From the IMG/VR virus record IMGVR_UViG_2877982868_000014: a DNA stretch of 64,000 nucleotides; one strand, written 5' to 3'. The stretch is from a virus. Taxonomy: Duplodnaviria > Heunggongvirae > Uroviricota > Caudoviricetes. Shown in pieces: positions 42,001-45,000 of this stretch. Made by a program: the position numbers. The stretch's first letter is position 1; every line of letters starts with the position of its first letter.

Positions 42001-45000
42001 TACCCACTAACAGGCCATCGCACATTACCGACGACATGAGATAGCCGCAGAAGTCCACCAGCGAATCGCCCTCGCGTTTTATCACCAGGGCTTCTTCTGA
42101 TTTCTGCTGCTCATATAGCAGGCGTTTAGCTTCGTCCTGGTCAGAAAAGCGTGTAAGCAGGTGGCGAATCACTACCGCCAGCTCTCCTTCTATTTTTTCA
42201 GCCAGCATAGGGTCACGTTCGTTCTCCGGTACAACTTCCGAAAAATTGAATATTACCCGACGACGTGATATCCCACCGCTGCGGTCACTGAATGACATGG
42301 CGTTATTGTTCACCGCCAGCACGACCGCCTGAATGCGTGTTGAGTAGGGGGCTTTATGTTTCGGGTCGATTGCCACCTTATCACCGCCTGTAATGGCCTT
42401 AATCCCTGCACCATCACCAGCGTAACGGGTCATATCCGGCATGATAATCAGCGAAAAGCCAACCACTAACGCACGTTCCCTGGCATCTTCCAGCGCCTTC
42501 ATGCTTGCCGATACCGTGTTGGCCTTACCCGCCAGCATAGTGCAAATCTCCGCCATTACGCTTTTACCGCTTCCACCCGGCCCCGTTACCTCAAGAAATA
42601 ACTGCCAGTCGTACCGATTCGCCAGCACCATGAATAACGCCGCCAGTACGCGATCTGCCTTGCGGTCATTCTCAGCCACCGAACGGCGCAACCACTTCCA
42701 GAAATTCGGCGCATGTGTTGCCAGCGTTTCCCCCTCTGCTGGTGGGCTGAAAGGTAATTCACTGGCAATTAACAACCAGTCGTTTTTGTTATGCTCCCGA
42801 AAATTACCAGTTCTGGTATCAAATACCCCGTTACTGAATCCAATCAGGTTACGGGCTGTATTCCCCATTACGGGCAAACTTAACTTCATGGTATCGACCG
42901 CCGATTTGATGGCGTTCTGCGAATAGCTGATTTCCGCATCAATAAAAATCTGCGCCATAGTCCGCTGTAACTCTTTATCCTGTACCGGCTCCCATACAAC
43001 ACCGTTGTAGTGGTGAACGGTGTCAGAATCCGCATTGATTGCCAGTTCACCGCCATAATGTGCCAGGAGAACTTCGCCGCGCTGGCTTGCTCCCATCTGG
43101 TTAAGTGCCAGTGGTGTCGCGCTGTCTTCTGTTTTTTTCTTTGCCGGAAACCGGATAATCAGTCCGTCATCAATGTTTTTACGCTCACGGGCAAGGTATT
43201 CACGCCAGTTCTCACACTTCTGGCTGTGCATGCCATCAGGGTAATAATTCGCATTCTGTATACTTGCCGCCGCCAGCTTCTGACCAATTGCCTTAACCAT
43301 TACAGGATCTAACTGTCCGGCTCTGAATATGCGCGCGGATGTGCGCCCATCAGGCACTATTTGCAGATTTCCGATCTCTTTCAGTTGTTCATCAGCCAGC
43401 ACAACAGGTGGCTCATTATCTCCAGCCATACGCGCATCGTGTTCCTGCCATTGTTTCGCGTGTGCCCAGGCATCACTACCCGCGAAAATAATTACCTCTG
43501 TGTCTTTGTGTTTTATTCCGCGTGGCTGTTTTTTTACGTTCGGTGCCAGTTTCATTTTTTCCCCCCTGCAACCAGCATTTCACGGATTTTGCGGATATAG
43601 CTTGCTGCACGTTTTTGATTTACGGCTTTATAATGGTCCACCAGCGTAAAATCACGGCGGTAGGTGATATTGCCTGGCGTAACGTGACGAATAACCACTC
43701 GTCCCCCACGTCTGGTGTCGCGGTAAATATCTCCGAGTCTGATTTCAGGCCGAGAGAGACCGCTGGCAGTAAAGCCAGAATTTTTCTTTTTCATAGTTTT
43801 ATTTTCCTGTCAGCAGTTCCGGTTTTATTTCCGCACGAATACAGAGTTCAGAAAAAATTCAGGAGAACCAACAATCTCATTACTTTTCAGTCGGCATTGT
43901 GATTTCACTTTCCCTTTATCCAGGTAAACCAGTACGCGTCCGGTGAAATCATCTGGCACATTAAGCACTACGGGTACATGCGCTTCATGATTATGCATGG
44001 CTTACATCCTCCGTGAATTTTCTTCTGTAACGCGTCTCTGCCACATATTCCGCATAGTCCGACGCAATACTAAGAATCATTTCACCCTCTGACTTGTAGC
44101 CACTGGTATTGATAAGAAAATATGCAGCTTTCATCATGTCAGCAACGCTCAACAATGCGCCCGCCGCTCAACAATGCGCCCGCTGCATCTTCCGGTGCGC
44201 CATCAAATTCCCGTTTCAGGGAATTAAAACGATCATCACGCATGTTTACCCCCCCCTGAATGACCTGATAACCGCAACTGGTCAGCAATTCGATAAATTC
44301 CGGCAGTGTGCCGAAACAGCAATCATCACGCAGACGTTCGCGGGATACTTCAACGCCGTTTTCGTAGTGACTCACCATGCGTCCGGTAAAATGCAGATCA
44401 TCATCGTGATGGCACGTTGACGGCTTAATCAGTCGCGCACGTTCCGCCAGTTCCAGCAATGCTTCAACGCTTCCGGCAATTGCACCATCCGGCAGGTGAT
44501 AATTACTTACCACGCGTCCATTCTCCACGTTGACCAGTAGCTGCCCGGAAAATATCTCGTCAAACTGAATGCTGTTAAGGTCAGAAATTGACAGGTTATG
44601 CATGGTGCACCTCCTGCACATCAGCCATGATAATTTTTCCGGCCTTATCCAGTGCCTGATCGGCTTTTAGCTGCACAAATGCTAAATAATGGAAGATGCA
44701 TTCTGATTCTCTGGCTGCGTGTTTATGCGCCACACCAGCGATAGCAGAAATCTCAATAAGTGAATCCATCAGCGTTTTGATAGCGTCTACCGCTGCATCA
44801 GGCCATGTTGCATTACACATGTTCCACCCCCTGACGAATACGGGCGGCGAATACCATCACGCAGCCAACTGGGGATTGCTGGCGTGCTTCCTGTTCGCTG
44901 GTGGCCTCAATGGTAATCACGCGCGGTTGTGCCGTGCTCAGGGCGATAAAACGTCAGGTGAATTTATTCAGGTTGTGCAAGTCCCGCCCTTGCGGGTGTG

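Follow-up and report, generated by a model that had tools for sequence, protein, structure and literature searches.

A probable recent, strain-private 19-bp tandem duplication disrupts a small gene of a satellite-like island nested in a Stx1a prophage of Escherichia coli O157:H7

When a short tandem duplication shifts the reading frame of a phage gene, has the gene been lost or has a reversible switch been thrown? This question is raised by positions 44146-44183 of a 64,000-nt stretch of virus record IMGVR_UViG_2877982868_000014 (hereafter the window, to which all positions refer). Judged by its genes, the element that carries the locus is a phage-inducible chromosomal island (PICI)-type phage satellite, inserted in the terminase gene terL of a Stx1a prophage of an E. 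coli O157:H7 strain. The initial annotation had offered both answers, a recent inactivating mutation or a slippage-prone switch. We consider it highly probable that the 19-bp duplication is spontaneous, recent and private to one strain and that it disrupts the C-terminal module (C-module) of a hypothetical PICI gene.

The duplication is as perfect as the initial annotation had claimed. Tandem Repeats Finder (TRF) reported a repeat of period 19 with 2.0 copies and 100% matches (score 76), and a string check and a repeat search confirmed two identical copies of CGCTCAACAATGCGCCCGC. In the string check this unit had no further occurrence on either strand of the window. By chance, 64 kb of DNA would be expected to hold such a perfect 19-nt tandem pair only ~2e-7 times (64000 × 4^-19). 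The disrupted gene lies on the minus strand, with its ATG at 44603 and a TGA at 44141-44139, and has 154 codons. Since 19 is not a multiple of 3, the frame is lost after residue 146, and eight foreign residues are followed by the early stop. The product ends in ...GALLSGGRIVERC (also written ...EDAAGALLSGGRIVERC).

Deletion of one copy in silico restored an open reading frame (ORF) of 197 aa that ends in ...GALLSVADMMKAAYFL...EDVSHA (tail also written ...EDAAGALLSVADMMKAAYFLINTSGYKSEGEMILSIASDYAEYVAETRYRRKFTEDVSHA). The repaired protein is identical to WP_000551748.1, which is annotated in O157 strain 272 and in strain ECP19-198, and to an exact sequence (P0001) in a 15-billion-protein collection. 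The frameshift and its repair to about 200 codons were thus correctly described. The downstream ORF, previously given 47 codons, exists and has 48 in full; the lower number counts from its second ATG. Its first ATG lies 1 nt past the new stop (TGAcATGATG) and in the old frame. An alignment of the window, a contig assembled from raw reads and strain 272 contained a single 19-nt gap, in strain 272, and was otherwise identical over 300 nt. In our feature list (Table 1) copy 2 is named as the extra one, which is an arbitrary choice.

We compared orthologous elements for the number of copies. A 1101-nt query around the site had matches in 1,422 of 5,426 complete E. coli genomes, and the best full-length matches each covered 1082 nt (1101 - 19). 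A 78-nt query centred on the repeat matched 141 genomes; among the matches listed, 30 of 30 spanned 59 nt (78 - 19) in two pieces. A junction-specific 34-mer, present only in the two-copy allele, had no match in the 5,426 genomes, a RefSeq complete-genome set of which the source assembly is not part. The two-copy junction 31-mer (CAACAATGCGCCCGCCGCTCAACAATGCGCC) had no match in IMG/VR, among the GTDB species representatives or in the JGI metagenomes. Within the 15-billion-protein collection, the intact 197-aa sequence occurred on at least 999 contigs, and the truncated 154-aa (P0002) and 48-aa (P0016) sequences on one contig each. All loci seen had one copy, and orthologues with two naturally separate ORFs and the same 38-bp sequence, which would have told against the earlier reading, were not found. 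Because relatives carry one copy and the two-copy junction is absent elsewhere, these comparisons identify the single copy as the ancestral state and the duplication as private to one strain or clone. The 31-mer, unique in every collection searched, could serve as a clonal marker for the strain.

The event also appears recent, as had been proposed. The best match to a 16-kb query was O157:H7 strain ECP19-198, covering 15,982 nt (16,001 - 19). An alignment of both over window positions 30209-64000 has 3 mismatches and 4 gaps; the listed differences lie at 33618, 33821, 44954 and 48346, at the duplication and, as a small complex change, near 62973. The ~10.4-kb nested island differs by the duplication and the single-nucleotide polymorphism (SNP) at 44954 only. 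This comparison is cleanest in the right half of the window; the tail part is more diverged.

Which part of the protein does the duplication break? The repaired protein matched three PHROG profiles, phrog_2512 (E = 5.5e-80), phrog_24341 (E = 2.6e-48) and phrog_340 (E = 1.5e-28), families without an assigned function. Its N-terminal module (N-module) is phrog_340-like in two stretches, its 77-aa C-module corresponds to phrog_24341, and phrog_2512 combines the C-module with another N-terminal module that is related to the upstream 74-aa gene. A deep phmmer search of 1.84 billion representatives returned just 45 clusters, in which N- and C-modules were matched independently.

At the junction of the two modules lies a poly-G tract (coding strand), the length of which varied from 5 to 9 among near-identical loci and sets whether the cistrons are fused or split. 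Five residues (C5 on the window strand) give a fused protein of 196 aa (P0003 and P0020; length inferred from the QGVNM junction), and C8, found in the window and in O157 strain 272, gives the fused 197 aa. The cistrons are split with C6 (121 + 77 aa; P0039, a 121-aa N-module), with C7 (118 + 77 aa; ABU 83972) and with C9 (122 + 77 aa; O121 FWSEC0006). The tract segment was found in 295 genomes, 40 of them identical to the window (C8, fused); among evenly sampled others, 32 of 34 spanned 70 nt, corresponding to the split C6 form. Because the G-run stands 5 nt 5' of the C-module ATG in every architecture, it looks like the Shine-Dalgarno (SD) sequence of a C-module cistron. By this comparison, the 197-aa gene joins two cistrons (about 118-122 aa and 77 aa) in a fused form found in a minority, and the natural split coincides with the module boundary, which precedes the duplication by 66-90 nt on the coding strand. 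The ~200-codon reading frame proposed earlier exists, but as such a fusion; in most relatives the cistrons are separate. On these alignments, the part that the duplication breaks is the 77-aa C-module. The 154-aa and 48-aa ORFs should be annotated with caution as pieces of one gene, itself a two-cistron fusion. This homopolymer-driven fusion and splitting of cistrons is more noteworthy than the duplication, though incidental to it.

Homologues of the C-module are 75-77 aa long and share 36-48% identity, with L9, K10, G15, P17 and R67 kept. Because they retain this length and these residues, the module is, on sequence evidence, a genuine conserved protein. An AlphaFold2 model of the 77-aa module alone reached a predicted local distance difference test score (pLDDT) of 91.2 and a predicted template modelling score of 0.77, with helices at residues 3-12, 20-38 and 44-75. 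In the full-length model, the N-module was poor (pLDDT below 50). The frameshift falls after module residue 26, within helix 2. In the 154-aa product, helix 1 and seven helix-2 residues remain, followed by the eight foreign ones. Because helix 3 is lost entirely and helix 2 by half, the model implies that the C-module of the 154-aa product very probably cannot fold, and the truncation is very likely disabling.

The locus has the features of a strain-private frameshift pseudogene: intact orthologues, a non-triplet indel, and a single lineage with near-identical flanks. Several points weigh against this reading. Of the proposed inactivating mutation, the disrupted frame and the premature stop are present in the DNA; the loss of function rests on the predicted structure model. 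The repaired protein had no Pfam, NCBIfam or PADLOC match and no real match in a phmmer search of the PDB, and a Foldseek search of PDB and BFVD with the C-module model gave nothing with E below 1. In the unlisted rest of the 141 genomes, the absence of the two-copy allele rests on the junction 34-mer. The raw-read evidence for that allele comes from two reported samples, and the second may be the same isolate re-sequenced.

Other attempts to place the protein gave similar results. A PDB phmmer match with E = 0.17 was dismissed as spurious. Long proteins that contain the module (P0160, P0188, P0190 and P0175), considered as informative domain fusions, had no informative Pfam domains, and P0160 appears to be an ORF called through spurious read-through. 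A tblastn search of 50,697 deposited phage genomes returned no homologue, and megablast of the locus against phages gave no match.

Microhomology-mediated tandem duplications (MTDs) have microhomology arms, typically at least 3 bp long, at both ends of the duplicated segment, which carries the periodicity past two copies (PMC8639346; bioRxiv 10.64898/2026.02.28.708716). At our locus, the periodicity ends at exactly 38 nt: the base at 44145 is A against C at 44164, and that at 44184 is T against C at 44165. The microhomology at the duplication ends is 0 bp. With such arms and exactly 2.0 copies, an MTD origin was ruled out. The single-copy allele holds no pre-existing repeat tract, the 19-mer being unique and without flanking identity. 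Stalling at a hairpin was ruled out as well, as the ancestral sequence, on either strand, and the mutant DNA folded no better than shuffled sequences (z = 0.2-0.5). Separately, the repeat search found an imperfect inverted repeat that brackets the duplication site.

In E. coli, about 13,000 tandem-duplication (TD) loci vary among strains, and 25-30% of variable TD loci lack microhomology arms (bioRxiv 10.64898/2026.02.28.708716). Our duplication differs from the dominant MTD type in its 0-bp arms and resembles the non-MTD (NMTD) class, being a short unique segment that was duplicated head-to-tail in one strain and frameshifts a gene. Mutations of this class are very common, and ours is an ordinary one with little significance alone; it documents one strain-specific pseudogenising event in a PICI-type satellite inside an O157:H7 Stx1a prophage.

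Could the duplication nevertheless be a reversible on/off switch, a contingency locus in which the copy number of the unit toggles expression of the C-module? Like simple-sequence contingency loci, it is a repeat in an ORF with a unit not divisible by 3, so that copy number sets the frame, and two perfect tandem copies are prone to collapse. Frameshifting tandem duplications in Schizosaccharomyces pombe, which are longer MTDs, reverted at about 1e-4, 100 times the forward rate (PMC8639346). In principle, the two-copy allele may likewise revert by slippage at an elevated rate, as any two-copy tandem repeat may. The likeness ends there, as simple-sequence contingency loci have an ancestral tract and copy-number polymorphism. 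No polymorphism of the 19-bp unit was seen in the 30 listed of 141 genomes or with the junction probes in 5,426 genomes and three collections; a single copy was the sole state in the other genomes and collections searched. The ON-to-OFF step would have been unaided, from an allele without repeat, microhomology or unusual hairpin, and the gene's real length-variable tract is the poly-G run 66 nt upstream, which behaves more like a contingency locus than the duplication does. Because the forward step is unaided and no other copy-number state was found, the sequence data indicate that the duplication is not a programmed switch or contingency locus. We regard that half of the earlier proposal as very improbable. 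About as improbable is a benign split, in which the 154-aa and 48-aa fragments would both be made by termination-reinitiation at TGAcATG, reassemble and keep the function. The family does tolerate separate N-module and C-module cistrons, and an in-frame ATG lies 1 nt from the new stop. The natural split, however, is at a domain boundary and has its own G-rich SD, whereas the duplication interrupts helix 2 in a compact unit of three helices, appends 8 foreign residues and leaves just a weak GAG, 10 nt ahead of the ATG. A sequencing or assembly artefact might be suspected, since a single deposited chromosome, 5,542,751 bp long, has the allele. This is the least probable explanation of all, because an independent de novo assembly of raw reads (Logan contig SRR8106739_704, L002; 2 samples reported) has the same 38 bp and, linked to them, the private SNP. 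As a platform error, an inserted perfect tandem copy of 19 nt would also be atypical.

The linked SNP is itself disruptive. With T at 44954, the Icd-like gene has TGA in place of TGG as its 21st codon (Trp21 to stop). Loci L001, L003, L005 and L006 keep the Trp codon, and the raw-read contig has the stop and the duplication together. An Icd-like 61-mer with the 44954 T had an exact match in 0 of 782 genomes that hold the segment. The two lesions are 790 bp apart in one operon, with the Icd-like gene two genes upstream of the duplicated one. These paired private knock-outs in one PICI operon are more noteworthy than the duplication, though incidental.

Further lesions of the operon were present in other strains. 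An independent nonsense mutation (...SGYK followed by a stop) in the same C-module was found in E. coli 13E0725 (L006; NZ_CP020092.1, 2835129-2835722), and the cluster representatives P0174, P0177, P0179 and P0183 have frameshifted or deletion-fused/rearranged C-modules. The 57-aa downstream gene is marked 'frameshifted' in RefSeq in the O157 and Shiga toxin-producing E. coli relatives examined; it is intact, at 66 aa, in ABU 83972 (L004). In E. coli PICIs, the operon of small ORFs that separates alpA from pri is thus unusually plastic, with fusion, splitting and repeated lesions, and this plasticity could guide the assignment of functions to these small genes.

Is this decay or selection? The data fit either an operon that decays under relaxed selection in a defective prophage or one that is selected against. 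Under the second reading, the early operon, with its Icd-like division inhibitor and small modular proteins, would be costly or toxic, and two knock-outs would have been fixed. This refines the explanation that we prefer and is not an exclusive rival to it. Both mutations are private and disruptive and are the sole differences of the island from ECP19-198; they are 2 of about 7 differences in 33.8 kb and lie within 1.2 kb (P roughly 0.03 under uniform placement), and the same module carries independent lesions in other strains. Against this, the sample is tiny and the clustering test post hoc, relaxed selection in a defective prophage alone predicts such lesions, and both the toxicity and the function behind the annotation name 'Icd-like' are putative. 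We regard selected loss as unlikely. A more elaborate version is more doubtful still: that the Trp21 nonsense mutation and the duplication reflect joint selection against a toxic early operon in which the 77-aa module partners the Icd-like protein, the duplication being a reversible 'parking' mutation. If this were true, a satellite could silence the C-module and later restore it by reversion of the duplication.

Returning to the highly probable explanation, a spontaneous, private duplication, its course is as follows. The 19-bp duplication arose without microhomology in the 77-aa module of a gene in an AlpA-controlled early operon. The shifted frame retains the N-module and helix 1 and loses helix 3 and half of helix 2. 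The 48-codon remnant, which lacks helix 1, might be weakly re-initiated at the ATG 1 nt past the stop. Because the operon genes overlap by 8 nt and the stop now comes 150 nt early, the downstream genes may be less tightly coupled in translation. The duplication thus adds one more pseudogenising lesion to an operon in decay or under adverse selection.

The positions of these features and of the surrounding genes are collected in Table 1.

Table 1. Features of the disrupted gene, the nested island and the interrupted terL gene (window positions)
Feature	Position	Strand	Basis or remark
Copy 1 of CGCTCAACAATGCGCCCGC	44146..44164		TRF, string check, repeat search
Copy 2 of CGCTCAACAATGCGCCCGC, extra 19 nt relative to relatives	44165..44183		Clean 19-nt gap in strain 272 and ECP19-198
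Frameshifted ORF, 154 aa	44139..44603	-	N-module, first 26 C-module residues and 8 out-of-frame residues (GGRIVERC)
Orphaned ORF, 48 codons (MMKAAYFL...EDVSHA)	43991..44137	-	Last 48 residues of the ancestral protein
Poly-C8 (coding-strand poly-G)	44249..44256		Junction of N-module and 77-aa C-module; near-identical loci compared
Nested EcCICFT073-type PICI-like island, ~10.4 kb	37329..47770 (approximate)	-	Splits terL of the Stx1a prophage
terL, N-terminal part	47771-48778		Annotation of relatives
terL, C-terminal part	36207-37328		Annotation of relatives
Tyrosine integrase	46371-47609	-	Island head
AlpA-like helix-turn-helix regulator	46154-46357	-	Island head
Icd-like gene	44813..45016	-	
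74-aa gene (phrog_5146)	44596..44820	-	Between Icd-like and disrupted gene
57-aa gene (phrog_340; paralogue of the first half of the N-module)	43825..43998	-	Downstream of disrupted gene
DUF4222 gene	43552-43794	-	Downstream, same transcription unit
D5-type primase/helicase gene (D5_N/Pox_D5/DUF5906)	41741-43555	-	Pfam, annotation
Protease/capsid-fusion gene	38242-40131	-	Annotation of relatives

From the annotation of relatives, the island has the order int-alpA-BRO-Icd-small ORFs-pri-SSB-capsid-like gene. All its genes are on the minus strand except YlcI/YnfO (ylcI), which lies between the BRO-N and Icd-like genes. The assignment of AlpA is weak (Pfam HTH_17, E 0.005). Between 43825 and 45016, four consecutive genes (Icd-like, 74 aa, 197 aa and 57 aa) are joined by overlaps of exactly 8 nt, an arrangement that suggests translational coupling along the chain. 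The same operon is present in ABU 83972, where it is 97% identical to that of the window; we take this strain to be a sequence type 73 (ST73) relative of CFT073.

Gram-negative PICIs of the EcCICFT073 type (O-island 51 family) carry int, alpA, pri-rep, the capsid-like gene c1499 and cos sites (Fillol-Salom et al. 2018, PMC6092414). Our island is alike in having int, an AlpA-like gene, small unidirectional ORFs, a D5-type pri-rep, a capsid-like gene and a cos-like segment, and its layout (int, alpA, pri-rep) and size of ~10.4 kb agree with the 10-15 kb of Gram-negative PICIs. It differs in lying inside a prophage terL rather than at a chromosomal attC, and it is known here from its genes alone. 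PICIs are expected to lack phage structural genes; the island has a protease/capsid-fusion gene, and EcCICFT073 likewise has the capsid-like c1499. They are also expected to use att sites never used by prophages, and here the insertion is in a prophage terL gene. That study (PMC6092414) gives no role to the small ORFs located between alpA and pri, and neither does the EcCIMP1 paper.

At the island borders, a scan for att core repeats of at least 11 nt found none, with 7-mers only. A direct repeat of ~195 bp (86.6% identity) joins 38023-38217, just downstream of the capsid-like gene of the island, and 49294-49489, just upstream of the DUF1441 small-terminase gene of the prophage; a copy of the helper cos region may thus be part of the island itself. 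An imperfect 23-bp × 1.9 tandem repeat (45101-45145) lies between the ylcI-like gene and the Icd-like operon. It is set between divergent promoter-like sites, one of them on the plus strand (45102-45129) and the other on the minus strand (45151-45122), and may function as an operator.

The host prophage is defective: terL is split, and the protease gene is interrupted by IS1203. Window positions 10895-12205 match an IS1203 copy. In the tail-gene part (7309-31208), identity to ECP19-198 was 99.35%, with 155 mismatches, a divergence that indicates mosaic recombination among lambdoid prophages. Within the replication-protein gene of the prophage (61609-62547), a 39-bp × 2 (20-bp × 3.8) repeat at 62123-62200 probably represents the iterons of a lambdoid ori.

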